From a virus (taxonomy: Duplodnaviria > Caudoviricetes), in the IMG/VR virus record IMGVR_UViG_3300022752_000032, positions 1-64,000 of that record: a stretch of 64,000 nucleotides of DNA. One strand, written 5' to 3'. The position numbers and the translations under genes were made by a program. Below, piece by piece: positions 8,920-36,005 of the stretch; the stretch's first letter is position 1, and every line of letters begins with the position of its first letter. The notes under the pieces were generated by a model. It saw only the letters and a list, made by a program, of their open reading frames with translations. It was not told the DNA's origin and ran no database searches.

Positions 8920-11178
<2,259 letters not shown>

Positions 11179-11189
11179 GGAGGGGCTAA

Positions 11190-14702
<3,513 letters not shown>

Positions 14703-15721: not shown

Positions 15722-17950
15722 ATGCCAATTAACTTCCCAGACAGTCCGTCGTTAAATCAGACGTTCTCATCTGGAACAACAACTTGGCGTTGGAATGGCA
15801 CAGTATGGCTAGTAGTTCGTGACTTTGCACCAACAGGTGCAACAGGTGCGACAGGTCAAACTGGTGCTGCAGGACAGACCGGCGCTACTGGTGCAGTAGG
15901 TAATACAGGTGCGCAAGGTAATACTGGTGTAACTGGTCAAACAGGTGCAGTTGGTAACACAGGTGCGCAAGGTAATACTGGTGTAACAGGTCAAACTGGT
16001 GCAGTTGGTAATACTGGTGCAGTAGGTAATACTGGTGCAGTTGGTAATACTGGTGCTGATGGAAATACAGGAGCACAAGGTAATACTGGCCCAACTGGTA
16101 TCACTGGATACACTGGCCCAACTGGTCAAACTGGTGCAGTAGGTAACACAGGTGCAAACGGTAATACGGGTGCAACTGGTGATATTGGTGCAACTGGTGC
16201 AACTGGTGCACAAGGTAACTTTGGTGGTATTACTGTTGATTACAACTTTAGTACTAACACAACTGTTTCCGATCCAGGTTCTGGCAACGTAAAGTTCAAC
16301 AACGCTAACGTATCTCTTGCATCAAAGATGTCTATTGATGACGAAGATGGTAATGCAACAGATATTCAATCAATGCTACGCACAATTGATGACTCAACAA
16401 GCACAATTAAAGGTCACTTCCGCGTATCAAATAAAGCAGATTCTACAGATTTTGCTTTATTCACAATCAGCGCAGTTACAGAGCAAACAGGCTTCTTTGA
16501 AGTAGATGTTGCTTATGTATCTGGCTCATCAACATCATTTTCAAATGGTGAAGATGTAATTATCACTTTTGCAAGAACAGGTGATGCTGGAGCACAAGGT
16601 AATACTGGAGCACAAGGTAATACTGGTGCTACAGGTATCACTGGTGCTACTGGTGCAGTAGGTAATACTGGAGCAACAGGCCCAACTGGTGAAGTTGGTA
16701 ATACTGGTGCTACAGGTATCACTGGTGCTACAGGTGCAGTAGGTAATACAGGTGCTGTAGGTAATACTGGTGCAGTAGGTAATACTGGTGCACAAGGTAA
16801 TACTGGTGTAACAGGTCAAACTGGTGCAGTTGGTAATACTGGTGCAGTAGGTAATACTGGCGCTACAGGATTAACTGGTGTAACTGGTGCTACTGGTAAC
16901 ACAGGTTCTAACGGAACATTTGCAACAACTGATGCAAACCCTCCAACAAGCCCATCTCCTGTAACTGGAGATTCATGGTTTGATCCTACAAACGGTATCG
17001 TATTTGTTTACTACGACGGTTTCTGGGTTGAAGCAGTTGGTGGAAACGTAGGTCCTACAGGTATTACTGGTCCTACAGGTGCAGTTGGTAATACAGGTGC
17101 ACAGGGTAACTTCGGTGGCGCAACATTTAAGTATGCGTTCGATACAAATACCGCAGACTCAGATCCAGGCGCAGGTGATGTCAAGTTCAGTAATGCGAAC
17201 GTATCACTAGCATCATACATGTACATCAATAAGACAGACGCAGATGCATCAGATATCTCGTCATTCTTAACAACTATTGATGATTCAACAAGCCCAATTA
17301 AGGGTCACTTAAAGCTAACAAACATCTCTAACTCCAACGATTATGCATTGTTTACAATTGTAAATAACAGCATCACAAGTGGAGATTATTTCAAGGTGGC
17401 TGTTGCTTACGTATCAGGCTCGACATCGTTCTCGGCGGCAGAGTCCGTTACGATTACGTTTGCTCGTACAGGTGACGCAGGTGCTAATGGAGCAACTGGA
17501 GCAACTGGTCAAACAGGTGCTGTAGGTAATACTGGTGCAGTTGGTAATACTGGAGCAACTGGAAATACAGGTGCTGTAGGTAATACTGGTGCAACTGGTG
17601 TAACAGGTCAAACTGGAGCAACAGGTTCAAATGCAGTGCTAACACTAGTTCAGAACCCACAAACTGGTACTTCATACACAATTGTTGTTGCAGATGTTAA
17701 TAAGTTAGTTGAGCTTAGCAACGCTAATCCAATTACGTTAACAGTCCCAACAAACGCAGCAACTGCTGGATTCAATGCTGGAGATCAGATTAACCTTCTA
17801 CAGACTGGCGCAGGTCAGGTAACTGTTGGAGGAGCTGGAGTTACAATCAATGGAACTCCTGGTCTAAAACTTCGTGCTCAGTATTCATCTGCTACGCTGA
17901 TCAAGCGTGCTACTGATACATGGGTACTTATCGGAGATCTTTCCGCATAA
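15722..17950 (+). CDS. Collagen-like fiber protein
   Basis: 742 aa; [15 protein letters not shown]-terminus, two internal repeats ending FARTGD, C-terminal KLRAQYSSA domain. Confidence 0.85.
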
Positions 17951-18068: not shown

Positions 18069-19430
18069 ATGCCTATAGATTTTCCTAATAGTCCTAGCGT
18101 AGATAGTACATTTACCTCTGGTAATACTACTTGGCGCTGGAGCGGTACCGCATGGAAAGTTGTCCGTAATATTGCCCCAACGGGTGCTACTGGACAGACT
18201 GGGCCTACGGGTGTAACTGGAAGTACTGGGCCTACAGGTATAACAGGTATAAATTGGCGAGCATCCTTTGATTTTATTGAATATAATGTCCGTGATGTAG
18301 TTCAATACAACGGCAGTACATATTTTTGTAACACATTTATTGCAAGCGGGGATGCTATCTCACATATCCCTAGCGTATCTGCACGCTGGGATTTACTTTC
18401 AGCTAAAGGTAGTACAGGACCTACAGGTCCAACAGGTGTAACTGGAAATACTGGTGTAACTGGAGATGACGGTCAATTTAGCGTAGCCGCAACAACTCCA
18501 CCAGCTTCTCCTGAAGTTGGGGATGCATGGTATGACTCTGCAAGTGGAAATTTATATGTTTATTATGATGGCTATTGGGTAGAGGCGGCAAGTGCCAATG
18601 ACGGCCCAACTGGTAATACAGGAGCAACTGGAGCAGTTGGTAATACAGGTGTAACGGGACAAACTGGTGCACAAGGAAACACAGGTGCAACGGGTATAAC
18701 TGGAGCAACTGGTTTAACGGGTGCAACGGGAAATACTGGAGCAACAGGTATAACTGGAGATGACGGTCAATTCTCAACAGTTGCAACAACACCACCTGCA
18801 GCACCCGAAGCAGGGGATGCATGGTATGACGCATCTTCAGGAAATGTTTATATTTATTATGATGGCTATTGGGTAGAGGCAGCGAGTGCTAATGATGGTC
18901 CTACTGGAAATACAGGTCCTACAGGACCAACTGGTATTACAGGAAGCACTGGAGGTACTGGACCTACAGGACCTACTGGTACTGCAACTTTAACTAGATA
19001 TCGTTTTGTAGCCGCAGGTGGCGAGACTGAAGTTTCTGGAGCAGATGCAAACTCAGTAACACTTGCCTATACCGCAGGCTATGAGCAAGTATTTCTTAAC
19101 GGTGTTTTACTTGTAAGAGGAACAGATTACACCGCAAGTAATGGAACTTCAATTGCTAGCCTTTCCGCTCTTGCTGTTAACGACATTGTTGAGATACTTG
19201 CAATTGGTGCCTATAACGTAGCAAACGCAGTTCTTTCAACTACAGTTGATGCAAAAGGTGACTTACTTGTAGGTACTGCCGCTGACACAATTGGTAGACT
19301 TGCAGTAGGAACTAATGATTACTATCTAAAAGCTAACTCAGCGGCCACAGGTGGTCTTGAGTGGGCAGCAGTTACAGTACCACCAGCAGATGATGACCAA
19401 GCAATACTAGCCGCACAAATATTCGGATAA
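18069..19430 (+). CDS. Collagen-like fiber protein
   Basis: 453 aa; MPIDFP N-terminus, two GDAWYD..YYDGYW modules, C-terminal [13 protein letters not shown]. Confidence 0.85.
18456..18910 (+). repeat. Intragenic duplication with 294-bp offset
   Basis: GGAGATGACGGTCAA begins at 18462 and 18756, each followed by near-identical module sequence. Confidence 0.8.
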
Positions 19431-22275: not shown

Positions 22276-22809
22276 ATGCCAGCAATAGATTTTCCAAACT
22301 CTCCATCTGTCAACGATACCCATACCGTTGGCAACCGTGTTTGGAAGTGGAACGGTACCGTTTGGGAGGTCGTTCGTTCGACTGTTCCTTACTCTACTGG
22401 GGCAACTGGTTCTACCGGGCCAACAGGACCTACTGGCACTACAGGGGCTACGGGTACTACAGGCTCAACTGTAACTGGACCAACAGGTGCTGCTAGCGCT
22501 ATTTTGGCTATTAATAACGTAACTGGAACAACCTATACTTTACAAGCAAGTGATCTTAATGATCTTGTGACTTTAAGTAATGCCGCGGCAATTACTCTTA
22601 CAATTCCTCCATCAGTATTTAGTGCTAATGATGTTGTTAATGTTTCTCAAACTGGAGCAGGTCAGGTTAGTTTTGCTCAAGGGGCTGGAGTAACTATTAA
22701 CTCATCTGGTGCTACAGCAACTGCGCCTAAGTTAAGAGTTCAATACTCTTCAGCCGCAGTAATCTGCACAGCAAGTAATACGTTTTTAGTAGTAGGCGAC
22801 ATCTCCTAA
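22276..22809 (+). CDS. Short collagen-like adaptor fiber
   Basis: 177 aa; MPAIDFP..WKWNGTVW, about ten G-X-T triplets, KLRVQYSSA domain; AGGAGG RBS and TATAAT upstream. Confidence 0.8.
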   Translation: MPAIDFPNSPSVNDTHTVGNRVWKWNGTVWEVVRSTVPYSTGATGSTGPTGPTGTTGATGTTGSTVTGPTGAASAILAINNVTGTTYTLQASDLNDLVTLSNAAAITLTIPPSVFSANDVVNVSQTGAGQVSFAQGAGVTINSSGATATAPKLRVQYSSAAVICTASNTFLVVGDIS

Positions 22810-22813
22810 GCCA

Positions 22814-23359
22814 ATGCCAATTTTATTTGGCACTATTGCCTCATCTAACCAGCAGGCGCGAGCTGATACTGGTGCTATGTTTCCTATTAGTGTTTATACC
22901 GTAGGTGATGTTAACGCTTCTTCAATTACACTTTCTAATATACCTTCAACTTATACTCATCTACAAGTTAGATTTTTAACATTAAATTCCGCGACGGGCG
23001 CAACTTTTTTTAGACTTAACGGTGATACTGCTGGTAATTATTCAAATCATTATCTATACGGTAGTGGTACTGATGCACAAACAGGTGGCACTGCTAATTC
23101 AACTCAACTTTATATAGCAAACCATGGAACATCAATTCCTACCATTGGTATTATAGATATTTTAGACTACAAAAACACTAATAAATATAAAACAACAAGA
23201 ACAATTAGCGGTAACGAAACGAACAGTGGAAATAACACTGCTTCTGCTATATGGTCAGGTAACTGGAGAAACACAAACGCAGTAACTACTTTTCAAATAT
23301 ATCCTAGCGGTGCAAATTTTACACAATTTACAACAGTTGCTTTATATGGAATACTTTAG
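22814..23359 (+). CDS. Triplet cassette 1, subunit A
   Basis: MPILFGT leader; IPSTYTHLQVR; ALYGI end. Confidence 0.7.
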   Translation: MPILFGTIASSNQQARADTGAMFPISVYTVGDVNASSITLSNIPSTYTHLQVRFLTLNSATGATFFRLNGDTAGNYSNHYLYGSGTDAQTGGTANSTQLYIANHGTSIPTIGIIDILDYKNTNKYKTTRTISGNETNSGNNTASAIWSGNWRNTNAVTTFQIYPSGANFTQFTTVALYGIL

Positions 23360-23369
23360 GAGGGCATGA

Positions 23370-24695
23370 ATGAGTACAAATACACCAATATCTACCATAA
23401 ATCTTAGCAGTGCCGCTTCATCCATCACTTTTAGTAGCATTCCTCAAACTTATACTGATTTAATTTTAATTGCATCAGTCAAAAGTGTTACTGCTCCTGC
23501 TGGAATTAAATATCGATTAAATGGGGATTCAGGTGCAAACTATTCACATAATACACTCACAGCTACTGGTTCAGCAATTAGTGGTCAAAAAGAAAGTATA
23601 ACTTCTGGTCTATTAGCATATTATGGTTACACAGATACAGTTAATTACGGTCTTTATCAACATAATTTTATGAACTATGCTAAAACTGATTACTATAAAG
23701 CCAGTATCGGAAGGTCGGATAATACTAGCGGTGCTGGAGTAGCGTTGATGACAAATACATGGCGCAATAGCAGCGCAATTACATCTATTAGCGTATTCTT
23801 AGATAGCGGCAACATGGCATCAGGTTCAACATTTAATCTTTACGGAATTGTTGCAGCTAGCGGATACGCTACTGGTGGAAATTTAATTACAACAGATGGG
23901 TCTTATTGGTATCATACATTTACATCAAGTGGAACATTCACTCCTACTCGAGCGCTTACTGCTGATTATTTAGTAGTTGCAGGTGGTGGTTCAGGTGGCA
24001 CAAAACACGGCGGTGGTGGTGGAGCCGGTGGTCTTTTAACATCCTCAGTATCATTGGCTGTTAATACTGTTTACACCGTAACCGTTGGCGCGGGTGGAGC
24101 TGCAACAACAACAAAACCAGCTGATGGATCTTCTGGTACATCTTCAAGCATTTCTGGTACAGGTCTTACCACAATTACTGCTACTGGCGGCGGTTATGGT
24201 AGCGCTGGAAATCAAACTGGTGCGACAACAAGTGCTGGTGGTTCAGGTGGTTCAGGTGGTGGAAGCGGTAGTGGTGGTGTAACAAATGGTGCAGGTGGAA
24301 CAGCAACGCCTTCTCCAGCTCAAGGTAATAATGGTGGACAAGGTGGAAACCCAAGTGGTGCAGAGCGTGGCGGAGGTGGTGGTGGTGCGGGAGCGGTAGG
24401 TGCTACTGGAGCGACATCAGGTAATGGTGGCGCTGGAATCGCATCAAGTATTTCAGGTTCATCTGTAACTTACGCAGGAGGTGGCGGAGGTGGTTGTAGA
24501 AGCGATGTTGCCGCTGGTACTGGTGGTTCTAGCATTGGTGGTGCAGGAAGTGGCGTTGATGGAACTGCTGGTGGTGAAGGAACAATAAATACTGGTTCAG
24601 GTGGAGGCGGCGGGGGTCGTACTTATGGCTCAGGTGGCGGCTCAAACAGCGGTGCAGGTGGCTCAGGAATTGTAATTGTGAGGTATGCGGTCTAA
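23370..24695 (+). CDS. Triplet cassette 1, subunit B fused to a glycine-rich domain
   Basis: N-terminal ~160-aa YTDL..LYGI domain followed by YWYHTF..DYLVVAGGG Gly-rich domain. Confidence 0.72.
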   Translation: MSTNTPISTINLSSAASSITFSSIPQTYTDLILIASVKSVTAPAGIKYRLNGDSGANYSHNTLTATGSAISGQKESITSGLLAYYGYTDTVNYGLYQHNFMNYAKTDYYKASIGRSDNTSGAGVALMTNTWRNSSAITSISVFLDSGNMASGSTFNLYGIVAASGYATGGNLITTDGSYWYHTFTSSGTFTPTRALTADYLVVAGGGSGGTKHGGGGGAGGLLTSSVSLAVNTVYTVTVGAGGAATTTKPADGSSGTSSSISGTGLTTITATGGGYGSAGNQTGATTSAGGSGGSGGGSGSGGVTNGAGGTATPSPAQGNNGGQGGNPSGAERGGGGGGAGAVGATGATSGNGGAGIASSISGSSVTYAGGGGGGCRSDVAAGTGGSSIGGAGSGVDGTAGGEGTINTGSGGGGGGRTYGSGGGSNSGAGGSGIVIVRYAV

Positions 24696-26062
24696 TGGCT
24701 AATATGAAATTAATTGAGGCTAAGACAGTTGGCTCTGGAGGTGTTGCATTTATTACTTTTTCTGCAATTCCACAAACTTATACTGATATAAAAATTTTAG
24801 CATCTAGTAGAGATAATCGTGCTGGTCAAATCAATGACGATATATCAATACAGGTTGGCTATAACGGTGCAATAAATACTGGTTCTATCTATACTAAATA
24901 TAGAGGCTACGGAACTGGGAGCGGTGTTGGATCTGATAACAATTCAGGTACAGCGCTTAATGTAGGTTTTTCTACTGGTAGCACTGCAACCGCTTCTGTT
25001 TTTGGTAACAATTCAATTTATTTTGCTAATTATACTTCTAGTAATAATAAAACAGTTTCCTGTGATGGGGTATCAGAAAATAATGCAACCGATTCTTGGC
25101 AAGTTTTGAACGCTGGTTTAGTAGCAACTAGTAATCCAATAACCGATATTAAATTATTTGGCGCTGATGCCTCTTTATTAAGTGAACATACAACTTTTTA
25201 TTTATACGGTATTTCTAGTACTATTGCTAGTGGTGCTAAAGCCTACGGTGGTTATGTAACTGAGGATGCTAATTATTTCTATCACACATTTTTAGCAACA
25301 GGAGAATTTACTCCTACTGCTGGATTAACTGCTGATGTGCTTTGTATTGCAGGAGGCGGTGGTGGTGGCGGTTCTGGCGGTGGAGGCGGTGCAGGAGGTT
25401 TAAGATATTTAACGTCTGAATCAGTAACTGCTCAGGTTTATACTATAACTGTTGGCGCTGGTGGCTCTGGTGGTTTAGCACAAAATCAACAGGGTTACAA
25501 AGGTTCTAATGGTACAAATTCACAATTTGGTTCACTAACTGCTGCGGTTGGCGGTGGTGGAGGTGGAGGTAATGACCGATCTGGACAGCAAGATGGTAAT
25601 TCTGGTGGTTCAGGTGGAGGAGGTGGTTCATTTAGCAGCACATCTGGTACAGGTGGTAGTCCGACAAGTGGTCAAGGTAATGTAGGTGGTAATGGTTCAA
25701 CCGATGGCGCAACATATCGCAAGAGTGGCGGCGGAGGAGGAGCTGGTGCTGCTGCTGCAAACGCAGGTAATAACTTTTCTACCGATGGTGGAGTAGGTTT
25801 ACAATATTCAACATTTGCAACCGCGACTGGTACTGGTGCTAATAGTGGTTATTACGCAGGCGGCGGCGGAGCAAGTCCTACCAAAGCAGGAGGTCTTGGT
25901 GGCGGTGGAGCAGGTTCAGCATCTGGTTCTAATGATAATGGTACTTCAGGTGTTGCAAATACTGGCGGTGGCGGAGGTGCAAGCGGTTTTGCATCAACTA
26001 TCACTGCCTACTATGGCGGTGCAGGCGGTAGCGGTTTAGTAATTATAAGATACGCAAAATAA
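24695..26062 (+). CDS. Triplet cassette 1, subunit C fused to a glycine-rich domain
   Basis: LIEAKT..FYLYGI domain followed by Gly-rich domain ending GGSGLVIIRY. Confidence 0.72.
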   Translation: MANMKLIEAKTVGSGGVAFITFSAIPQTYTDIKILASSRDNRAGQINDDISIQVGYNGAINTGSIYTKYRGYGTGSGVGSDNNSGTALNVGFSTGSTATASVFGNNSIYFANYTSSNNKTVSCDGVSENNATDSWQVLNAGLVATSNPITDIKLFGADASLLSEHTTFYLYGISSTIASGAKAYGGYVTEDANYFYHTFLATGEFTPTAGLTADVLCIAGGGGGGGSGGGGGAGGLRYLTSESVTAQVYTITVGAGGSGGLAQNQQGYKGSNGTNSQFGSLTAAVGGGGGGGNDRSGQQDGNSGGSGGGGGSFSSTSGTGGSPTSGQGNVGGNGSTDGATYRKSGGGGGAGAAAANAGNNFSTDGGVGLQYSTFATATGTGANSGYYAGGGGASPTKAGGLGGGGAGSASGSNDNGTSGVANTGGGGGASGFASTITAYYGGAGGSGLVIIRYAK

Positions 26063-26770: not shown

Positions 26771-27328
26771 ATGCCAATATTAGGAACGGTAGCCTCTCAG
26801 TTTGCAGGGAAGCCTTTTAACTCGTTTGAGTCAATAGCAAGTTTTACTGTTGGTTCAGGTGGCCAAGATGTTGTTGAATTTACATTAATTCCACAGACAT
26901 TCAAACATTTACAATTAAGATTTGTGCTTAAAAATAATGATACTGGTAGTTTTAATAACGTTCCTATGAGGTTTAATGGTGCTACTAGCGGTTATTTTGA
27001 GCACTACTTAACATCAGATACAGCAATTAATGCAACAGGTGGTGCTAATTTAGGTGCCTTCAACACGGGCTTTTGGGCAGCATCAACTAGTCTAAATGCT
27101 AATGTTTTTACTACTGGAGTTGTAGAAATTTTAGATTACTCAAGCACAAGTAAAACAAAAGTTATAAGAAGTCATGGTGGAGGAAATAATAATACTACTG
27201 GAATACTGTGGCTTCATTCTGGTCTTTTTAACTCACAAGACGCTATATCTTCTATACAGATAGATACCGGAGGTCAAATAGTAAGTGAACACTCACAATT
27301 TGCCTTATACGGTATTAAAGGAGCATAA
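26771..27328 (+). CDS. Triplet cassette 2, subunit A
   Basis: MPILGTVASQF leader; KHLQLR; ALYGIKGA. Confidence 0.7.
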   Translation: MPILGTVASQFAGKPFNSFESIASFTVGSGGQDVVEFTLIPQTFKHLQLRFVLKNNDTGSFNNVPMRFNGATSGYFEHYLTSDTAINATGGANLGAFNTGFWAASTSLNANVFTTGVVEILDYSSTSKTKVIRSHGGGNNNTTGILWLHSGLFNSQDAISSIQIDTGGQIVSEHSQFALYGIKGA

Positions 27329-27852
27329 TGGCTGCAGCAGGAACTTATGACTCGATCACAACTACTACTCTAAACAGTAGTCAGTCATCAGTTACTCTTG
27401 ATTCATTTAGTGGATATACTGATTTAATTTTACAGATAAGTAACCAAATGGACGCCGCATCAGGACTTAGAATTAGATTTAATTCAGATACAGGATCCAA
27501 TTATGGACAAACACACTTTATAGGGTATTCAACATCTACTCTCGGGGCACAGGGTTCATTTGGAAACACTACTTCAATTCATAATAATTTAGTTTTTGGT
27601 GATTCTATAGGTTACAATGTATTTACACCACATATCATCCAAATTCAAAACTATGAAAATACTAATATGTATAAAACAATTTTATGGAGATATGGCACTT
27701 TGCAAAATATAGATGATAGCAGTGATCAAGGTTGGATTGTAGGAGCATGGAGAAATACTAATGCTATAACATCAATAGAAGTTTCTGCTTTTAATTCTAC
27801 TACAATTGCAACAAATACAAGTTTTACAATATATGGAATTAAAAAGGCATAG
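27328..27852 (+). CDS. Triplet cassette 2, subunit B
   Basis: YTDLIL, NYENTNMYK, IYGIKKA; TAATG coupling. Confidence 0.7.
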   Translation: MAAAGTYDSITTTTLNSSQSSVTLDSFSGYTDLILQISNQMDAASGLRIRFNSDTGSNYGQTHFIGYSTSTLGAQGSFGNTTSIHNNLVFGDSIGYNVFTPHIIQIQNYENTNMYKTILWRYGTLQNIDDSSDQGWIVGAWRNTNAITSIEVSAFNSTTIATNTSFTIYGIKKA

Positions 27853-27854
27853 TC

Positions 27855-28376
27855 ATGGCGCTAACAAATAAAATAATAGAGGCTAAAACCTTAGACAGTA
27901 ACACTTCAACTGTTACATTTAGTTTAATACCAGATACATATACAGATTTAGTTTTACTTGCAAGTTTAAGATGTAGTGCAACTGATTCACAAGGTGTTTT
28001 ATGCAGACTTAACTCAGACACTGGAAATAACTATCATTTTAGATCAGTATATGTTGGGAGTGGTTCAGCAAAAGGCTCATATACCTCCAGGAATGCTTCT
28101 TCTGTAACTTTTGGATCAGCTCAAAATACAAATGCTCCAAGTAATACATTTTCAAGTCATAGACTTTATATACCAAGATACACTAGTTCTTTTTATAAGT
28201 CTCTTGTGCAAGAATCTGTATCAGAGCACAACACGAACGCCTCAGCCTACCATGACTACACTAATGGTTTTTGGAGAAATACAGCAGTGATTACTACTAT
28301 TGCATTTACTATATATAATGGCAGTAATTTTCTTGCAGGAAGTACTTTTTACCTATATGGAATAAATAAACCGTAG
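27855..28376 (+). CDS. Triplet cassette 2, subunit C
   Basis: IIEAKT, FYLYGI. Confidence 0.7.
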   Translation: MALTNKIIEAKTLDSNTSTVTFSLIPDTYTDLVLLASLRCSATDSQGVLCRLNSDTGNNYHFRSVYVGSGSAKGSYTSRNASSVTFGSAQNTNAPSNTFSSHRLYIPRYTSSFYKSLVQESVSEHNTNASAYHDYTNGFWRNTAVITTIAFTIYNGSNFLAGSTFYLYGINKP

Positions 28377-28382
28377 GTAGAC

Positions 28383-28910
28383 ATGCCAATACTAGGAACA
28401 GTTGCATCTCAGTTCTCTGGGAAGTCCTTTAGCTCATATGATTCAATAGCTACTATTACAGTAACGTCTGGTGGTACCGCGACTATTGATTTTGATTCTA
28501 TACCCTCAACGTACACTCATCTGCAAATTAGATATTCAGCAACCGCAAACGCTGGTTCAAATCTGTTTATTAGAATGAACGGGGATACCGGATCAAATTA
28601 TAGAAATCATGCGTTAACTAGTTATGGTTATGCTTTAGACACTGGTACTGACACTAATAGGATGATCGGCATCGTCCAACCAACGTACCCTGGACTTGGA
28701 GTTGTAGATTTATTAGACTATAAAAATACAAGTAAGTACAAGGTTGTTAAATTTATAAGTGGCAGCGATAGTAACGGTGGAACCCGTAGAAATAGAATTG
28801 GTTCAGTTCTATGGAAAAATACTACTGCAGTAACTCGACTAGAAATAACAAGTGATGGAACAATAGAACAATACAGTAAGTTTGCCTTATATGGAATTAA
28901 GGGAGCATAG
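28383..28910 (+). CDS. Triplet cassette 3, subunit A
   Basis: MPILGTVASQF leader; THLQIR; ALYGIKGA. Confidence 0.7.
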   Translation: MPILGTVASQFSGKSFSSYDSIATITVTSGGTATIDFDSIPSTYTHLQIRYSATANAGSNLFIRMNGDTGSNYRNHALTSYGYALDTGTDTNRMIGIVQPTYPGLGVVDLLDYKNTSKYKVVKFISGSDSNGGTRRNRIGSVLWKNTTAVTRLEITSDGTIEQYSKFALYGIKGA

Positions 28911-29420
28911 ATGCCTTCTACATATGAGCCGATAGCAACAAGTACCTTAGGTAGTGCACAGTCTAATATTGAATTTACCTCAATACCAAATACCTATACA
29001 GACCTAGTTATTGCCGGTGGACTAAGAGTTGATAACGCTGGATCAGGTGGTGAAAACATGCTTATAAGATTTAATGGAGATACTAGCAATAACTACTCCA
29101 TGCACTACATGTTAGGAGATGGTTCTTCCGGAGGTTATGGTAGTCTTGAAAATTTTGATTCACTTTTAGCTTCTAGCGTTGGTAATACGGATACAAACTT
29201 ATATAGCGTTGAACTATGGCATATAAATAACTACGCAAATACAACAACGTACAAAGGAATGATACTTGGTCATTTTGCACAATATGGAAATCAAGTTCAA
29301 CAGTGGGTTGGAACCTGGCGTTCTACCTCCGCAATTACATCAATAAAAATACTTCCTAGTGGTTCTAAAAATCTTGCGTCTGGTTCAACCTTAACTATCT
29401 ACGGGATAAAGGCAGCGTAA
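28911..29420 (+). CDS. Triplet cassette 3, subunit B
   Basis: YTDLVI, NYANTTTYK, IYGIKAA. Confidence 0.7.
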   Translation: MPSTYEPIATSTLGSAQSNIEFTSIPNTYTDLVIAGGLRVDNAGSGGENMLIRFNGDTSNNYSMHYMLGDGSSGGYGSLENFDSLLASSVGNTDTNLYSVELWHINNYANTTTYKGMILGHFAQYGNQVQQWVGTWRSTSAITSIKILPSGSKNLASGSTLTIYGIKAA

Positions 29421-29950
29421 TGGCAAACACATACAACTTGATTGAGGCTAAAACCTTGGGAACCGCCATCGCAAGCGTTGAATTTAGTTCAATACCACAA
29501 ACATACACGGACTTACTTTTTAAGCTTTCTACTAGAGCAGCAAGTGCTGGAGATTGGACTAATTTTCTAATTGGATTTAACGGAGGTACATCTAACATAT
29601 CTTGGAGAGGACTGTACGCCTACGGCACAACGGTAGGCTCAAATAGTGGTAGCGGCGGCCTTTACCGTATCGTAGGTAACTCGGCGTCGGATGGAAATAC
29701 ATCTAACGTATTTAGCAACACAGAACTTTATATTCCAGACTATACATCAACAAGTAAGGGAAAATCTGTTGCCTATAAGGGAGCCGTTGAGAACGACGGG
29801 ACAGGTAACATCTTAGATCTTGGTACTGTTTTTTGGAGTCCAGGAACACAGGCTGCAATAACAAGCGTAGTGTTTACAAATTCTGCGTCACCTACTGCAA
29901 ATTTTATGGTTGGTTCAACCTTTTACCTATATGGAATTAAGAACTCATAG
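29420..29950 (+). CDS. Triplet cassette 3, subunit C
   Basis: LIEAKT, FYLYGI; TAATG coupling. Confidence 0.7.
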   Translation: MANTYNLIEAKTLGTAIASVEFSSIPQTYTDLLFKLSTRAASAGDWTNFLIGFNGGTSNISWRGLYAYGTTVGSNSGSGGLYRIVGNSASDGNTSNVFSNTELYIPDYTSTSKGKSVAYKGAVENDGTGNILDLGTVFWSPGTQAAITSVVFTNSASPTANFMVGSTFYLYGIKNS

Positions 29951-30223
29951 CAAGATGAAGGTAAGCTTAGCCTAATGCTTAGGAGGAAGAATATCTGAGC
30001 GATCATAGATTGCCTGGGCATTCTCCCAAAATATCTTACTGTTCAAAAAGCAGGGTAGGCAGAAAAATACTACCTCGTGTTTTAAGGCATATAAAGTTTA
30101 GAAAACCTGTATATAAACATAAAATTAGACCATACTTTTACTGGTCAGATCAAAAATTTAACAAGAATAAGACACGCTTTTACCATTAAAGGATAGATAT
30201 GCCAGAAATGGTATAGTTGGATT

Positions 30224-31261
30224 ATGAAAGTTGCTGCCTACGCTATTGCCCTAAATGAAGAGAAGCACGCTCAGCGGTGGGCAGATACTACTAAAGATGC
30301 AGATTTTAGATTGGTATGTGATACAGGGTCTACAGATAAAACAGTTGAGATACTAAGAAGTAATGGCGTTATTGTCTATGAAATAAGCGTAAAGCCTTGG
30401 AGATTTGATGTTGCAAGAAATACTGCTCAGAGCCTGTTGCCAGCAGATGTAGATGTATGTTTAAGTTTAGATTTAGATGAGACAGTAGATGAAGACTTTT
30501 TTAAAAAAGTAAAAGAACATTGGGCACCTGGTGCTAACAAAGGCTGGTGTGATTTTGATACTGGTCATACTTGGCTCGGTGCTCGCTTACACGCTAGAGA
30601 TGGTATTTATTGGAAATACCCTATTCATGAAGTATTTGTTCCTTCCCTTGATACACCGCTAATGAGTTGCACTATTCCTACCAAGATGTATCACAAGCCA
30701 GATAATACAAAGTCTCGTGGTCAGTATATGACAATGCTTGTGGCAGCAAGTAAAGAGTTTGGAGAAGATCATAGAATTTGGGTTTACCTTTGCCGTGAGT
30801 ATTACTACTACAGAATGTGGGAGTTAGTAATAAGTAGTGCTCAAAAGGTTACTGATTTTAGTAAGGACTGGTACGTAGAACGTGCAGCAGTTTGTAGATT
30901 TGCATCCGAAGCATGTAGAAATTTAGGAAGACTTGAAGAGGCACATACTTGGGCAGATAAAGCAATATCAATTGACCCATGCGGTGAGGCTTACTATGAA
31001 AAAGTACGTTGTTATTATGAACAATCTAACTGGGGTGGCGTCTGGGAAACTTGCAAGTTAGTTGCTACGTGTGAACCAACTAAACATTATTTATCATCTG
31101 AAGCGCTATGGAACTGGATGCTAGATGATATGAGAGCCTTATCTGCTCATAATTTAGGAGATAAAGCAAAAGCAGTAGAGTATGGAGAGAGCGCACTTAA
31201 GGGAAATCCAACTGAGACTAGATTAAAAAATAACCTAGTTTTCTACCGCCAAGGCATTTGA
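30224..31261 (+). CDS. GT2-family glycosyltransferase with C-terminal TPR region
   Basis: NEE, DTGSTD, F..ARN, LDLDE, IHE motifs; helical TPR-like C-terminus. Confidence 0.88.
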   Translation: MKVAAYAIALNEEKHAQRWADTTKDADFRLVCDTGSTDKTVEILRSNGVIVYEISVKPWRFDVARNTAQSLLPADVDVCLSLDLDETVDEDFFKKVKEHWAPGANKGWCDFDTGHTWLGARLHARDGIYWKYPIHEVFVPSLDTPLMSCTIPTKMYHKPDNTKSRGQYMTMLVAASKEFGEDHRIWVYLCREYYYYRMWELVISSAQKVTDFSKDWYVERAAVCRFASEACRNLGRLEEAHTWADKAISIDPCGEAYYEKVRCYYEQSNWGGVWETCKLVATCEPTKHYLSSEALWNWMLDDMRALSAHNLGDKAKAVEYGESALKGNPTETRLKNNLVFYRQGI

Positions 31262-32127
31262 TGACACAGCCAAATGTATTTTTAGCCCTTCTTGTAAAAC
31301 AAAAAGAAGCCGTTCTTCCACTATTTTTAGAAAGTTTAAACGACTGGGACTACCCTAAAGAAAACATATTTATCTACATCAGAACTAATAACAACACAGA
31401 TAACACAAAACAGCTTTTAGAAGAGTGGATAGAAGAGTACGGGGATAAATATAAAGGATTAATCTATAACAGCGAAGATGTGCCAGAAAAGGTAGAAAAA
31501 TATGATGTTCATTTTTGGAACGGAGAAAGATTTAGGGTTCTAGGAAAAATTCGTCAAGAAAGTATGAACCAAGCTTTACTCACAGATTGTGAATATTATT
31601 TTGTAGTAGACACCGACAACTTCTTGTTCCCAGAAACTCTTAAAGAGTTAGTAAAACTAGACTTACCTATAGTTGCTCCCTTCTTAAGGTATGCGGTTGC
31701 GCTTGGAGAAAACGCTGATACTCCTGCGGAGGCTGCTAAGCGAGAGGGTCATATGAGTAGGTACTACTCAAACTATCACGACAAGGTAGATGACTTCGGG
31801 TCAATTATTCCAGAAGATATTTACTACAAAATTTTAAATCAAGAGGTAAGAGGGTTAATTGAATGCATGTGTGTTCACTGCACTTATCTGATTAAAAGAG
31901 AGTATCTATCTGAACTTAATTACCTAGAGCAATCGGACCGCTGGGAGTATATGGTTTTTTCTAACTCGGCTAGAGATAAAGGAATTACTCAATACATAGA
32001 CAACAGAACTATATATGGAGTTCTAACCTTGAGTGAGAATCTTGGGGCCTCTAGGTGGTGGTTTAATTACTTAAAGAGTAAAGAAAATAGAACAGAAAAG
32101 TATAAATCTGTTACTAATTTTACATAA
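31261..32127 (+). CDS. GT-A glycosyltransferase resembling the N-terminal domain of collagen galactosyltransferase COLGALT1
   Basis: LP..L..L...YPKE, NNTDNT..LLEEW, HFW..ERF, IRQ, FVVDTDN, IVAPFL, YSNY, VHCTYLI in the same order as the recalled COLGALT1 motifs. Confidence 0.8.
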   Translation: MTQPNVFLALLVKQKEAVLPLFLESLNDWDYPKENIFIYIRTNNNTDNTKQLLEEWIEEYGDKYKGLIYNSEDVPEKVEKYDVHFWNGERFRVLGKIRQESMNQALLTDCEYYFVVDTDNFLFPETLKELVKLDLPIVAPFLRYAVALGENADTPAEAAKREGHMSRYYSNYHDKVDDFGSIIPEDIYYKILNQEVRGLIECMCVHCTYLIKREYLSELNYLEQSDRWEYMVFSNSARDKGITQYIDNRTIYGVLTLSENLGASRWWFNYLKSKENRTEKYKSVTNFT

Positions 32128-33124
32128 GTCTATCTGTCCAAGTTTTTGGAGTTTTATCAGTAACAAACTCTAGAGGCAGGTGGTAATTAAACTGCCTAGC
32201 ACCTTTAGATTTAATCCAGTTTACTAGTTCTACTAGTCCAGACTCTAATGAAGTAGTGGTTTTGTAGTTTAAAAGTTCTCTTGCTAGATTGGCTGAGCAG
32301 TTAGCGTGAAATACTTCTTGAGGTCTTCCTGGCATATAAATTGGATCTAACTTAAAATCAAGAATTATTGATAGTTTCTGAGCTAGTTCATTTATGGTAA
32401 CAAACTCTTCATCTGGACCAATATTAACAATTCGACCATCAGCAACATCAGTCTCACATGCAATCATAAGTGGATCAGTGACATCTTGCATAAATGAGAA
32501 ACATCTTTTTTGCTCGCCATTTCCATAGATAATAGGTTGCTTACCTTGAAGCATTCTATTTATCATAATAGAGGCTACGTTTCTATAAGGGTCATCAAAT
32601 TTTTGTCTAGGGCCAATAATGTTGTGTGGAACAAGTATTACATAATTAAGTCCGTGAGTGTCTGCAATATTTTTAATCATAAGTTCAGCCCCATACTTTG
32701 CAATTCCATACGGATCCTGAGGCTTAGGGGTCATTGACTCAACAAAGGGAACTACATCCTGAGTGCCATACCTTGCCATAGAAGATAGATGAACAATTTT
32801 TTTAACATTAGTCTTTACGCAAGCACTCATTATGTTTGTTGTTATTTGCATGGTATTTCTAACAACTAGAGACGGAGAGAATACGGATAGTCCTTCATAG
32901 GCAGTACAAGCAGTATGAACTACTAAATCTACATCTTTGAAAAGAGGTTGGATTAGTTCTAAGTTATCTAAATCTATATTATGAAAATCAACACCTGAAG
33001 GTATATTTTCTTCATATCCACCTAGTAAATTATCTATTCCTACAACATCATAGCCTTTAGCAAGAAAAGCATCTGCTAAATGACTGCCCATAAACCCTGC
33101 TACACCAGTTACTAATACTTTCAT
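32120..33124 (-). CDS. NAD-dependent nucleotide-sugar epimerase/dehydratase (GalE-like)
   Basis: TGVAGFMGSH Rossmann motif, SS, YGIAK catalytic motif. Confidence 0.9.
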   Translation of the reverse strand: MKVLVTGVAGFMGSHLADAFLAKGYDVVGIDNLLGGYEENIPSGVDFHNIDLDNLELIQPLFKDVDLVVHTACTAYEGLSVFSPSLVVRNTMQITTNIMSACVKTNVKKIVHLSSMARYGTQDVVPFVESMTPKPQDPYGIAKYGAELMIKNIADTHGLNYVILVPHNIIGPRQKFDDPYRNVASIMINRMLQGKQPIIYGNGEQKRCFSFMQDVTDPLMIACETDVADGRIVNIGPDEEFVTINELAQKLSIILDFKLDPIYMPGRPQEVFHANCSANLARELLNYKTTTSLESGLVELVNWIKSKGARQFNYHLPLEFVTDKTPKTWTDRLM

Positions 33125-33801
33125 TTGTTAATTGCCTCTTTTAGTTTTGTAATATCACTTTGAAAATTTGTCATCTTATATTTAGCCAAAGCATTCCTAT
33201 CTCGCTCATACATCCAAGGAGAGTTTATCGCAGAGTAGAGATCATCAACAGGTGCTTTACGCACCGCGTAGTGGTGATGCTCTAAAATAACTTCAGGGCA
33301 GTATCTAAGAGTCTGCATAGCATCTCCTAGTAGTTTCCAAAAATTATCTATATATAAATGTAATAACTCGGGAGGGGCTAGGTATCCAAGTGTTTTTACA
33401 ATATTTGAATCAAAACAAGTTCCATTGCTAGGTAAAAGAGCACTTTGAGCCAGATCATCTGGGTATGAGATGCCCATAGGCACATCTTTTATTGCATTAA
33501 TAAGGTTTTCATCCCACTTAGGTGTCATAACAGTCGTATCATCGGCTGCCCAAAGAATGTAGTCATACTCTTCCATATACTTATTTGCCATGCGATTTAG
33601 TTTTTCATTAACACCTAATTGCTCTGGTTTAGGCCCTATCTCATACTTAATACCCTGCATCCTTGGATATAAAGCGTGATCATCCTCATCTAAGCAAGCA
33701 ACTATGTCTGAAACAGTCGAGTGATATCTTAGAGAGTCCACTGCTCTAACAAACCTTTTAGGTCGAGTCCTAGATGGAACTAAGATAACTGAGCGAGTCA
33801 T
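33121..33801 (-). CDS. GT2-like glycosyltransferase
   Basis: LVPSRTRP, DEDD, ADD, HLYIDN, LEHHH. Confidence 0.78.
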   Translation of the reverse strand: MTRSVILVPSRTRPKRFVRAVDSLRYHSTVSDIVACLDEDDHALYPRMQGIKYEIGPKPEQLGVNEKLNRMANKYMEEYDYILWAADDTTVMTPKWDENLINAIKDVPMGISYPDDLAQSALLPSNGTCFDSNIVKTLGYLAPPELLHLYIDNFWKLLGDAMQTLRYCPEVILEHHHYAVRKAPVDDLYSAINSPWMYERDRNALAKYKMTNFQSDITKLKEAINK

Positions 33802-33827
33802 AACTCAATTTTAACATGGAATACATA

Positions 33828-33861
33828 AAAAATAGGGATCACTCTCTACAAGTGATCCCTA
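33828..33861 (-). terminator. Rho-independent terminator
   Basis: 11-bp stem TAGGGATCACT/AGTGATCCCTA with a T-run on the minus strand after 33876. Confidence 0.8.
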
Positions 33862-33875
33862 CTTTATATGTTGTA

Positions 33876-35018
33876 TTACTTAGAAATACCTTCACCACTA
33901 ATTACAGTCTCTTGTCCAGTAGCAAGATCACGAACTACAACCGAAACGGTGTAATCACGACCTTCTCCAAGAGATCCAACATTTAGAGTCTGAGCAGAGC
34001 CATCTGTTCCAATTGCAGTAGTTGAGCCAGATTTATTATCACGGACAATAAGAGTTGCCCAAGATTTACTTGCATCAAAGTTTGGAACCGCAGGCATTGC
34101 AATAGCCACAGATAAGGCTCCAGAGGCATCTACAACTCGAGAAGAGATAGATGGAGCAGTAATTGTTGCTCTATCTGCTGTAGCACTTCTGGCTGGCGTT
34201 GGGGCTGGCGCAGTTGAAGCAACGGTTGCAACTACAGGGTTTGATATTACTGTCTCAGTATTTGTCAAAGTATCACGAATAACTGTTTTCACTGTGACAT
34301 TTTGATCTTGTGGTAAATTATTAATTGTCACCGTGCTTGAGCCTTGTGCAAGACCAACTGATGTAGTTGAGCGACCATCTGTAACTGTGTATACAGAAAC
34401 AACTGAGGTAGATGGTAGGTCTTGAATACCAGCAACATCAACAGTCATCGAGACTGAGTTATCCGCATTAAGCACCTGAGTTGTAACTACAGGTGAGTTT
34501 GCTTGTGCTACAGCAGTGTCAGTTGGCTCTGTAGGAAGTGTGACTGGAGAGAGTTGAGTGATCTCATATGTAGGAGTCACCTTTACATCAGGTGCTACAT
34601 ATACTGAAACAATTGAGCCTTGAGTAATTGGCTTAAGCCTAGTCACACCATTTGAATCAACATACTTAACTCCAGCGTTAGTTGGAAGTTTTACAATAAT
34701 TCCATATGAATCAATTACACGATTTGGTGAGTAACCATCCCAAGTAACAATACGATCAACAACACCGTCCACAATAACTGCATATTTTGCTTTAGCAGTT
34801 GGAGCGGGTGTTTGACCTGACATCTGTGGCGTTGAGGTAATTGCTTCTAATGTAATTGCAAAGTAGCCATCTGCTCTTGTTTGAAACAAATTTTCGGACT
34901 TCATTCGAGATACTGTGCTTTGCGCATCTGTATCTGCTGTCCATCCAGCAAAGGCTGGGCTAGCAATAAGTGTTAGCGCAGTGGCTAAACTTAATATACG
35001 TACTTTATTCTTTAACAT
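33876..35018 (-). CDS. Secreted protein with two FN3/Ig-like repeats
   Basis: Signal peptide ending SPAFA; two related beta domains (..TTSVG..RDTLTNTETVIS / ..TTAIG..RDLATGQETVIS). Confidence 0.7.
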   Translation of the reverse strand: MLKNKVRILSLATALTLIASPAFAGWTADTDAQSTVSRMKSENLFQTRADGYFAITLEAITSTPQMSGQTPAPTAKAKYAVIVDGVVDRIVTWDGYSPNRVIDSYGIIVKLPTNAGVKYVDSNGVTRLKPITQGSIVSVYVAPDVKVTPTYEITQLSPVTLPTEPTDTAVAQANSPVVTTQVLNADNSVSMTVDVAGIQDLPSTSVVSVYTVTDGRSTTSVGLAQGSSTVTINNLPQDQNVTVKTVIRDTLTNTETVISNPVVATVASTAPAPTPARSATADRATITAPSISSRVVDASGALSVAIAMPAVPNFDASKSWATLIVRDNKSGSTTAIGTDGSAQTLNVGSLGEGRDYTVSVVVRDLATGQETVISGEGISK

Positions 35019-35086
35019 TCCTGCTCCTAGTCATTTTGTCTCTTGAGAGGCAATACTAGTAGGTAGGCTAGAAAATAGCAAGTAGG

Positions 35087-35611
35087 CTATGAAACTGCTT
35101 TTTTACGCTTGTTTTTCTTCTTCAGTTTCTCTTTTTTCTTCTCTAACTTGGCTGCTTTATCAATTTTTTCAGCCTTATATGCCTCTACTGCATTGGCGCT
35201 AGTTCTACTTCTCCAAGCAAATCCGCACTCGGTACAGGTAACAATTTTTGCTGTAGTCCATCTTCCAGTTGTTGATAGTTTTTCTACAGATGTTTCTAGT
35301 TTGCCAGGTCTTGCGGTACAGAACGGACAGTTGGGATATCTACGACGTCGAGTCTCTTCTCCAAGATATGAAACAGAAAGAGTTCTGCGGATCTCAATTT
35401 CATCTTTGCCTCCCCATATTCCCCAAATTTGTCTGTGCTCTAAAGCCCACTGTAAACAATCTTTTCTTACGGGGCATGAGAAACATAAATTTTTAGCATC
35501 ATATTTTTCAGAAAAATCTTTGGAGAAAAACCAGTCTAAATATTTTTTATTTGATGGTTTGGCACATAGGGCTTCACTCTGCCATCTAAGGCTTTCTGCT
35601 GGTTTCCACAT
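35087..35611 (-). CDS. whiB: WhiB-family transcription factor with C-terminal zinc ribbon
   Basis: Four Cys (C..CFSC..C) plus GIWGG; extra CPFC..CTEC and a basic tail. Confidence 0.9.
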   Translation of the reverse strand: MWKPAESLRWQSEALCAKPSNKKYLDWFFSKDFSEKYDAKNLCFSCPVRKDCLQWALEHRQIWGIWGGKDEIEIRRTLSVSYLGEETRRRRYPNCPFCTARPGKLETSVEKLSTTGRWTTAKIVTCTECGFAWRSRTSANAVEAYKAEKIDKAAKLEKKKEKLKKKNKRKKAVS

Positions 35612-35666
35612 ATACTCTATTTTAAACTAAAGTACTATAAATCTACCGACTAAAACACTATATTTA

Positions 35667-36005
35667 CTATATTTCTATCCATGTAGTTAATTCAATATTT
35701 TCGACTATATCACCATACTCAGTCTCAGAATTTTCATCACACACAACATACTCAAACTCTTCCTCTAGAATGCCACACCAGCCCCTAGTTATTTGACAAT
35801 TTTCAATTAATTTAAAACTATCTCCTAAAGAATCAGCAACTCCATCTCTTTGGATAGCAGATGCTAGTGCTCTAGAGACAAGATCATTATCCATATCTAC
35901 ATAATCTAAAGTGTAATAAACGGTTGAGTTAGGGTTATTTTTACTGTAGCCAGAGCCACTCCACTCACACCAAAGCTCTTCCCCAGGTCTTGTGTCTTTT
36001 TTCAT
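35667..36005 (-). CDS. Hypothetical acidic protein
   Basis: 112-aa ORF packed in the operon. Confidence 0.6.
   Translation of the reverse strand: MKKDTRPGEELWCEWSGSGYSKNNPNSTVYYTLDYVDMDNDLVSRALASAIQRDGVADSLGDSFKLIENCQITRGWCGILEEEFEYVVCDENSETEYGDIVENIELTTWIEI

Follow-up and report, generated by a model that had tools for sequence, protein, structure and literature searches.

The 64,000-nucleotide stretch analysed here (hereafter the window) comprises positions 1 to 64,000 of the IMG/VR virus record IMGVR_UViG_3300022752_000032, which is 103,449 bp long and was judged 78% complete. Its open reading frame (ORF) at positions 31261–32127 encodes a true and specific relative of the N-terminal domain of the animal protein COLGALT1 (GLT25D1), the domain called GT1 or NGT, and chance cannot account for the likeness. 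In the phage the domain makes up a whole protein, whose gene follows directly on that for another glycosyltransferase, one with a family 2 (GT2) head and a TPR tail. On balance we think it probable that this NGT-like protein is the second of two glycosyltransferases that together O-glycosylate threonines of the collagen-like fibres of the phage.

The frame is open throughout from 31258 to 32127 on the + strand. A start at the TTG at 31258 would give 289 amino acids (AAs) and one at the ATG at 31261 would give 288; the A of this ATG is the last base of the stop codon of the upstream gene (TGA, 31259–31261, in the context ATT TGA TGA CAC). The close homologues are 287–288 AAs long, so the product is likely to be the 288-residue one. 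Residue numbers below are nonetheless those of the 289-residue translation from 31258.

Relationship to COLGALT1, LH3 and mimivirus R699

Used alone as a query against 177,635 distinct PDB sequences, the ORF product matched four COLGALT1 constructs (E 1.1e-15 to 2.1e-15, query residues 4–147) and four LH3/PLOD3 constructs (E ~1e-6), and the next match, an unrelated glycosyltransferase, had an E value of 0.26. A profile (A3) made from 19 stand-alone members of the family reached COLGALT1 at 1.7e-43 over profile positions 3–241, which is the full domain, the accessory (AC) domain of LH3 at 3.3e-21 and mimivirus R699 at 6.6e-10; TarS, the first generic GT2 enzyme, came at 0.0027. An AlphaFold model of the protein (12-row alignment; mean pLDDT 83.3, pTM 0.87) was compared with known structures by Foldseek, as an earlier note on this DNA, made from the sequence alone, had suggested for COLGALT1 and PLOD3. 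These two ranked at the top, COLGALT1 first (E 7.3e-20, TMq 0.73) and LH3 second, followed in order by R699, Mnn9, TarS, RmlT and SpsA. Alignment with VIA-align gave Z 28.7 with the COLGALT1 GT1/NGT domain (residues 48–320; root-mean-square deviation (rmsd) 2.2 Å over 250 aligned residues, 24% identity), 26.2 with the LH3 accessory domain (residues 293–543; rmsd 2.8 Å over 232 aligned), 21.1 with R699 (residues 250–455), 21.0 with Mnn9 and 18.6 with SpsA.

The earlier note had read the gene as a stand-alone look-alike of the COLGALT1 N-terminal domain by lining up a series of motifs. The coordinates and all of the listed motifs are found in the translation, the likeness itself holds at the level of both profile and fold (1.7e-43 and Z 28.7), and HMMER makes the pairings that had been proposed: NNNTDNT with DHNMDNT, HFWNGERF..KIRQ with KHWSDSRY..KLRQ, YFVVDTDN with ILFVDADN, IVAPFL with VVAPML, YSNY with YSNF, and VHCTYLI with VHSTFLI.

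Could the protein be a generic enzyme of the GT2 fold that resembles COLGALT1 in nothing more than its GT-A fold and a DxD motif? Its Pfam matches are all below threshold. The best, Anp1 (PF03452, E 7.2e-6), scores 26.1 bits against a cut-off of 28.8, Glycos_transf_2 (PF00535) 21.3 against 23.3, and Glyco_tranf_2_4 (PF13704) 21.3 against 27.5, although close homologues carry PF03452 and PF13704 in precomputed domain tables. Homologues are named "glycosyltransferase family 2 protein" in their sources. Against this stand a gap in the profile search of about 40 orders of magnitude from COLGALT1 to the best-placed generic GT2 structure, a Z score of 28.7 compared with 17–18 for generic enzymes, and motifs beyond the DxD that are collinear with COLGALT1 over the entire domain. 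In addition, a bacterial member of the family (P0315, 509 AAs, metagenomic), which consists only of an NGT-like and a GT25 domain, is collinear with COLGALT1 through both domains (residues 20–437 with chain residues 60–496, E 7.7e-37). The profile gap, the Z gap and this two-domain alignment refute the generic reading, which we regard as highly improbable. The nearest matches of all are bacterial and phage proteins named only "glycosyltransferase family 2/25", and the whole family is specifically related to COLGALT and PLOD, so that the best relatives are not generic GT2 proteins lacking a closer tie to these domains.

The known relatives differ from the phage protein in various ways. The NGT domain of COLGALT1 (PDB 9evj, 9evk, 8zgc, 9u7h) resembles it as a GT-A domain with a DxD motif along its whole length, but has a C-terminal GT25 domain in the same polypeptide, and the human domain is inactive and part of an endoplasmic reticulum enzyme that acts on hydroxylysine (PMC12003778, PMC12987934). 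The LH3/PLOD3 AC domain (PDB 6fxk and others) is related in fold and sequence, but lies between glucosyltransferase and lysyl hydroxylase domains and binds neither metal nor substrate (PMC12003778), whereas the solitary phage protein keeps the DxD and the pocket. The C-terminal domain of Acanthamoeba polyphaga mimivirus R699 (PDB 9dyt) is a related domain in a viral protein, but is more distant than the animal domains and belongs to a larger two-domain protein of an amoebal giant virus. Finally, yeast Mnn9 and Anp1 (GT62) supply the best Pfam model and a good fold match, but with 13% identity, and unlike the phage protein they are fungal Golgi enzymes of mannan synthesis.

The donor pocket

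The GT1 domain of COLGALT1 is reported to bind Ca2+ and UDP-Gal without taking a direct part in catalysis, and its nearest structural neighbour is the LH3 AC domain (PMC12003778). The NGT contains endogenous UDP-galactose, whose contacts are R61, V143, Y126, L59, K133, D166/D168, W135, R147, H235 and D265, of which D265 lies near the anomeric carbon, the usual position of the catalytic base (PMC12987934). With the offset between chain and UniProt numbering derived from D166 in the printed alignment, these positions correspond in the phage protein as follows (COLGALT1 first): L59 to L12, R61 to K14, Y126 to V79, K133 to H85, W135 to W87, R139 to R91, V143 to L95, R147 to R99, D166 to D118, D168 to D120, H235 to H207 and D265 to E230. 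The COLGALT1 pocket residues are thus identical or conservatively replaced, and the donor pocket is therefore intact, including the acid at the base position (E230, codon 31945–31947; the H207 codon is 31876–31878). The DxD that had been called intact is indeed so, as D118-T-D120 (nucleotides 31609–31617).

These residues are conserved across the family. Among 235 domain instances (from the window protein, 150 representatives and 80 bacterial ORFs, some proteins having two), N44 is kept in 233, D48 in 234, H85 in 230, W87 in 231, R99 in 234, D118 in 232, D120 in 233, H207 in 228 and E230 in 221 (with Asp in a further 8), so the DxD positions are near-invariant family-wide. All residues of the family signature (N44, D48, H85, W87, R91, R99, Y114, D118, D120, N121, P141, N172, H207, Y210 and E230), each kept in at least 221 of the 235 domains, are present in the window protein. 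COLGALT1 departs from the family at H85, N44 and Y114, which are invariant, and at D248, which is mostly so; these are K, D, I and C there. D248, which is Ser in LH3, was considered as a lost catalytic residue and dropped, since 14 of the 235 prokaryotic domains also have Cys. We lean towards a cytoplasmic GT-A enzyme that would depend on a metal and a UDP-sugar.

The GT2-TPR partner

The stop codon of the upstream gene and the start codon of the NGT-like gene overlap by one base (TGATG), and the two genes are, to judge from this arrangement, translationally coupled. Together they are the last two genes of a + strand block that extends from 7570 to 32127. The upstream product has a GT2 head (Glycos_transf_2 at 22.0 bits, under the 23.3 cut-off) and a TPR tail, and its best solved relatives are Listeria GmaR (3e-22) and SunS (7.5e-10). 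GmaR is the Listeria flagellin O-GlcNAc transferase and SunS glycosylates a bacteriocin peptide. The Listeria monocytogenes GmaR (PDB 22ao) and Bacillus SunS (PDB 7msn/7msp) structures relate to the partner gene only, and neither acceptor is a collagen-like repeat.

Among tested systems the closest in function is that of Clostridioides difficile SgtA, a 358-AA GT-A plus TPR enzyme whose gene adjoins bclA3 and which in vitro adds β-O-GlcNAc to Thr of the collagen repeats (G-P-Thr) of BclA3 (PMC7157674). The phage GT2-TPR protein has the same build (345 versus 358 AAs), the likeness being one of domain build as described in that paper, and SgtA thus matches the neighbour of the NGT-like ORF and not the ORF itself. 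PMC7157674 is not known to report an NGT-like partner, and its authors found no enzyme for the further sugars.

The pairing is widespread in phages. In a set of phage loci taken from IMG/VR (the best 80 of 200 confirmed loci), 62 are at least 54% identical to the window protein, and in all of these except two that are cut at the locus edge GT2-TPR flanks the NGT-like gene, which makes 60 of 80. In four of the 60 (L127–L130) GT2-TPR lies about 1.5 kb downstream on the opposite strand, with a WhiB-like gene upstream instead; that of L127 is longer (551 AAs) with an extra C-terminal part. A predicted complex of the GT2-TPR and NGT-like proteins scored 0.01 against a mark of 0.32, and we count this neither way.

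A large prokaryotic and viral family

A word-indexed search returned 679 relatives of the window protein, with 62–99% identity among the 120 listed. HMMER with profile A1 over 1.84 billion cluster representatives (50% identity clusters) yielded 1232 proteins with E no higher than 0.001; 659 of them reach 1e-10 or better and 343 reach 1e-30 or better. The 150 best of the 1232 are mostly multi-domain proteins of up to 1882 AAs; the first 68 of these include 22 with PF00535 (GT2), 9 with PF01755 (GT25) and several with methyltransferase, sulfotransferase or GT1/GT4 domains. Members are named in their sources "glycosyltransferase family 2/25 protein" or "GR25 family ... LPS biosynthesis". PHROGs and NCBIfam have no family for the window protein, and a tblastn search with it gave no match in 50,697 named phage records, among which its phage group has neither a cultured nor a deposited relative.

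We also collected bacterial loci from one genome per GTDB species with two peptide patterns (the best 80 of 200 confirmed loci). Their NGT-like domains are 41–50% identical to the window protein and occur, among others, in Mesorhizobium, Methylobacterium, Bradyrhizobium, Methylobacter, Xanthomonas, Paenibacillus, Bacillus, Clostridiales, Gemmatimonadales, Parachlamydiales and Dependentiae/TM6, and also in metagenome-assembled genomes of Actinomycetes. At most of these loci the NGT-like domain begins about 400 residues into a long ORF. Stand-alone copies of 254–298 AAs are found mostly in Bacillota, Dependentiae and related uncultured bins, with further ones in two Actinomycetes metagenome-assembled genomes and a few Pseudomonadota. 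Local hidden Markov models (HMMs) place the GT2-TPR module in the same protein in 52 of the 80 loci and in a separate gene nearby in 8, and do not detect it in 20; by the same means 13 have GT25 in the same protein, 11 have it in another gene and 56 lack it. In a 933-AA Mesorhizobium protein (L005), for example, GT2 occupies residues 7–99, the NGT-like domain begins at about 390 (Anp1 model 390–542) and GT25 occupies 687–871. One metagenomic protein of 1348 AAs (P0121) has GT2, TPR-like and methyltransferase regions, two tandem NGT-like domains and a C-terminal GT25. Because the alignment of P0315 with COLGALT1 is collinear across both domains, the full COLGALT1 architecture exists outside animals. 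A search with a bacterial NGT plus GT25 segment gave 597 matches, and the 120 listed are all bacterial or metagenomic, with no eukaryotic sequence among them.

In an unrooted tree of 101 rows (the window, the 80 bacterial loci and 20 of the 80 viral loci after near-duplicates were thinned) the phage group of the window is a well-supported clade (SH-aLRT 100), and the bacterial clades follow phyla; the tree has no animal or giant-virus rows and is silent on the animal domain. The NGT-like family is a large unnamed prokaryotic counterpart of the COLGALT1 NGT and PLOD AC domains, and not a phage oddity. Look-alike clusters of 250–330 AAs in the ESM Atlas include several labelled mainly Nucleocytoviricota and others labelled Uroviricota or Bacillota; the Nucleocytoviricota labels hint at stand-alone NGT-like copies in giant viruses.

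Linkage to threonine-rich collagen-like genes in bacteria

A six-frame scan of the bacterial loci with 4-kb flanks, for runs of at least 6 G-X-Y triplets (X not Gly), found a collagen-like run in 39 of the 80; 36 have runs of at least 10 triplets and 33 of at least 15, and the longest has 176. Five rounds of shuffling gave 1, 0, 0, 0 and 0 loci of 80 with a run. The positive loci are spread over Alpha-, Beta- and Gammaproteobacteria, Bacillota, Actinomycetota, Gemmatimonadota and Chlamydiota. Thr accounts for 76.6% of the Y residues in the 3056 bacterial triplets, Ala for 46.9% and Ser for 15.7% of the X residues, and Lys for 0.41% of X and Y positions; bacterial collagens overall have 31.6% Thr at Y (PMC8968730). 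This linkage of the NGT-like family to collagen-like genes rich in Thr makes Thr the likely acceptor.

Such genes are rare in the genomes concerned. Pfam Collagen finds only 1–5 collagen-like places per 5.1–8.7 Mb in five whole genomes, and in 5 of 5 one of these abuts the NGT-like gene (frames of 2183, 799, 353 and 968 AAs, and in the fifth, L003, a 309-AA frame just beyond the flank). Two of five loci without a run in the flank, L051 and L074, have collagen frames of 2291 and 652 AAs just outside it. In Mesorhizobium sp. AR07 (L009) the 2183-AA frame holds 39 of the 40 Pfam Collagen matches of the genome and is divergent from a GT2-TPR-NGT-like gene (819 AAs); beside the frame are two DUF4347 genes, one of which extends into collagen repeats. 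GT25 is added to the L009 build in the 933-AA orthologues from Mesorhizobium, such as that of L005. A one-strand cluster in Bacillus sp. EB106-08-02-XG196 (L079, 567–8041) opens with an Enas spore-appendage gene and a (GAT)59 collagen gene and continues with genes for ManC, the NGT-like protein (269 AAs), GT2-TPR (359 AAs, starting where the NGT-like gene ends), a GT4 enzyme and a nucleotidyltransferase; it is a candidate glycosylation operon for spore-appendage collagen.

Collagen-like tracts of the phage

The window has 29 G-X-Y runs with 343 triplets between 9295 and 22470, all on the + strand, in four large tail-fibre ORFs (Table 1) and one small ORF. The fibre gene at 15722–17950 has runs of 43 and 38 triplets. 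As in the bacterial loci, Y is mostly Thr (74.6%); at X, Ala accounts for 41.4% and Asn for 19.2%, and Lys occupies 0 of the 686 X and Y positions. No match to PF01755 (GT25) or to the PF13640 dioxygenase was found in the 103-kb record (78% complete). Since the tracts lack Lys and the record lacks both of these families, hydroxylysine is most probably not the acceptor, which agrees with what the earlier note had concluded from tracts that it described as having essentially no Lys. The fibre genes share the + strand block with the NGT-like gene, in keeping with the pattern in bacteria, but lie 8.8–22 kb upstream of it and are not adjacent; the phage fibres would be the acceptor by virtue of the neighbourhoods of the family in bacteria, and not of adjacency in the phage.

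A probable two-enzyme system for collagen-like fibres

The mechanism that we consider probable on balance is as follows. The GT2-TPR enzyme, of the GmaR/SunS/SgtA type, would recognise the G-X-Thr repeat and put the first sugar on Thr hydroxyls of the tail-fibre collagen tracts, as SgtA does. The NGT-like enzyme would then extend this by a further sugar, so that the virion fibres would carry a short O-glycan. The bacterial fusions that add GT25, GT4, methyl- or sulfotransferase domains might make longer or decorated glycans.

Several observations weigh against this. The distant viral clade (18 of the 80 phage loci, 38–45% identity) has no GT2-TPR neighbour detectable by the local HMMs. Three of the five run-negative bacterial loci above (L058, L066 and L081) have no collagen gene nearby in a genome-wide Pfam Collagen search. 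In the window about 8.8 kb separate the end of the nearest collagen tract (22470) from the NGT-like gene downstream of it, an unrelated array of small paralogues lies between them, and a G-X-Y run lies within 5 kb in only 11 of the 80 phage loci. Five related phage records (four 100% complete, one of the distant clade) all have 14–34 Collagen matches, but this is weak evidence since collagen-like fibres are common in phages. Lastly, both characterised relatives of the domain, the COLGALT1 NGT and the LH3 AC, are catalytically inactive, and pocket conservation is no proof of catalysis because the COLGALT1 NGT keeps the DxD, the UDP-Gal and D265 and is inactive all the same.

An accessory, non-catalytic role beside GT2-TPR is accordingly a serious rival, if in our estimation an unlikely one: the UDP-sugar and metal would be structural cofactors of a subunit that stabilises, dimerises or allosterically tunes the GT2-TPR enzyme. 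The two inactive relatives sit beside active transferase or hydroxylase domains, the isolated COLGALT1 NGT is inactive despite a strongly conserved pocket (PMC12987934), which it retains for reasons of structure or allostery, and GT2-TPR is fused or near in 60 of the 80 bacterial loci and adjacent in 60 of the 80 phage loci, all of which would suit a subunit. Such a role fits less well with the fact that 229 of 235 domains retain an acidic residue at the base position and 232–233 the DxD, with proteins such as P0121, where two tandem NGT-like copies accompany three further enzyme domains, and with stand-alone copies that have no detected GT2-TPR (at 20 of the 80 bacterial and 18 of the 80 viral loci). 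In bacterial glycosyltransferases with several domains each added sugar usually has its own active site, and this too argues for an enzyme.

The protein may instead be an active glycosyltransferase with another acceptor, either a virion protein (capsid, tail tube or the paralogues of about 175 AAs) or a glycan or glycoprotein of the host envelope, modified for receptor masking or superinfection exclusion; we give this about as little weight as the accessory role. The NGT-like/GT2-TPR pair does come directly after the paralogue array at 26771–29950 and not after the collagen genes, its closest relatives add an epimerase/dehydratase and a third transferase on the other strand in the manner of phage "moron" sugar cassettes, and the PHROGs category of the neighbours is "moron, auxiliary metabolic gene and host takeover". 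However, the partner belongs with GT2 enzymes directed at proteins and peptides (GmaR, SunS) and not with polysaccharide synthases, the linkage seen across the family is to Thr-rich collagen-like genes, and the pair closes a + strand structural block and is not in an early or lysogeny region.

Gene neighbourhood

Table 1. Genes of the window discussed in the text, with the matches that characterise them.
Feature	Coordinates	Strand	Product (AAs)	Remarks
Collagen-like (G-X-Thr) tail-fibre protein	8920..11178	+	752	GXY runs 9295-10485; PF01391; tail-fibre PHROGs; candidate acceptor
Collagen-like (G-X-Thr) fibre protein	11193..14702	+	1169	GXY runs 12090-14324; PF01391; candidate acceptor
Collagen-like (G-X-Thr) tail-fibre protein	15722..17950	+	742	phrog_6320 2.5e-74; PF01391; candidate acceptor
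Collagen-like (G-X-Thr) tail-fibre protein	18069..19430	+	453	phrog_5073 4e-43; PF01391; candidate acceptor
GT2 + TPR protein glycosyltransferase	30224..31261	+	345	TPR_2 29.9 bits; phrog_13126 E 2.7e-71
Stand-alone NGT-like (COLGALT1 GT1-like) GT-A glycosyltransferase	31261..32127	+	288	ATG 31261
SDR-family NDP-sugar epimerase/dehydratase	32120..33124	-	334	PF01370 8e-52; convergent with NGT-like gene
Further putative glycosyltransferase	33121..33801	-	226	phrog_14945 "glycosyltransferase" 8.7e-39
WhiB-like protein	35087..35611	-		PF02467 1.3e-16; long C-terminal extension, CxxC pairs, Lys-rich tail

The genes that converge on the pair belong to the closest relatives only. The SDR gene, which the GalE and LegB models match below their cut-offs, is present in 13 of the 80 phage loci and its product is a possible source of donor sugar. 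The third transferase gene, for which no Pfam family above threshold and no PDB sequence match was found, is present in 11. A WhiB-like gene is much more common, lying near the transferase pair in 61 of the 80 loci, and this conservation points to an actinobacterial host for this lake phage. The window, with a G+C content of about 40%, carries tail-fibre genes as well as this WhiB-like gene, no tRNA genes were found in it, and viral contigs related to its record reach about 130 kb.

Upstream of the pair is an array of at least 8 paralogous ORFs of about 170–185 AAs on the + strand (22276–23359, 23370–26062 and 26771–29950), which have in common a "..SIPxTYTDL.." segment in the N-terminal part and "LYGIK" at the C-terminal end. 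In two longer members (441 and 455 AAs), which match phrog_2295 (unknown function), a Gly/Ala/Ser-rich tail comes after this N-terminal domain; the short members that were scanned (27855–28376 and 29420–29950) match no PHROG family. Similar arrays precede the pair in 12–13 of the 80 related phage loci. On the - strand at 33876–35018 is a 380-AA ORF with a signal-peptide-like N-terminus, Thr/Ser/Val-rich repeats and no Pfam family, and a terminator-like hairpin of 16 pairs lies 3' of it (33829–33865). A scan of 29500–35800 found no terminator 3' of the NGT-like gene, and fewer promoter-like sites than in shuffled sequence, so that it carries no information on transcription here.

Origin and meaning

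A full-text literature search (supplements outside its scope) found no description of a bacterial or phage NGT homologue, and none linked to collagen-like genes. BLAST with the COLGALT1 GT1 domain has been reported to find only vertebrates, invertebrates and giant viruses (PMC12003778). The bacterial proteins mentioned in PMC3244457 are only GT25 enzymes, which match the C-terminal part and lack the first DxD, and in PMC2938197 hydroxylases and sulfotransferases are predicted for bacterial collagen-like proteins and the word glycosyltransferase is absent. The present analysis shows a large bacterial and phage family of the NGT domain with every residue of its pocket conserved, bacterial proteins with both the NGT and GT25 domains, and a strong genomic link to Thr-rich collagen-like proteins. 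The phage gene by itself is a modest result, one more member of a widespread family.

The earlier note had suggested a bearing on the origin of collagen glycosylation in eukaryotes, and for that of animals such a bearing is plausible. As a tentative possibility, which we think doubtful as it stands, the dead GT1/NGT domain of COLGALT and AC domain of PLOD might descend from the NGT-like family, which would itself still be active; animals and giant viruses would have inherited the NGT plus GT25 unit from a bacterial system for O-glycosylation of Thr-collagen, and phages would use the same kit to make glycosylated fibres of "viral collagen". If this were true, collagen glycosylation would predate both animals and hydroxylysine. 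Should the prokaryotic enzymes be active, they would be a model for the former role of the animal domain and candidates for the synthesis of short O-glycans on phage fibres and on the collagens of bacterial spores and surfaces, and the origin of collagen glycosylation would become testable. For the biology of the phages themselves, sugars on the fibres would have a bearing on how hosts are recognised and how the fibre is protected.

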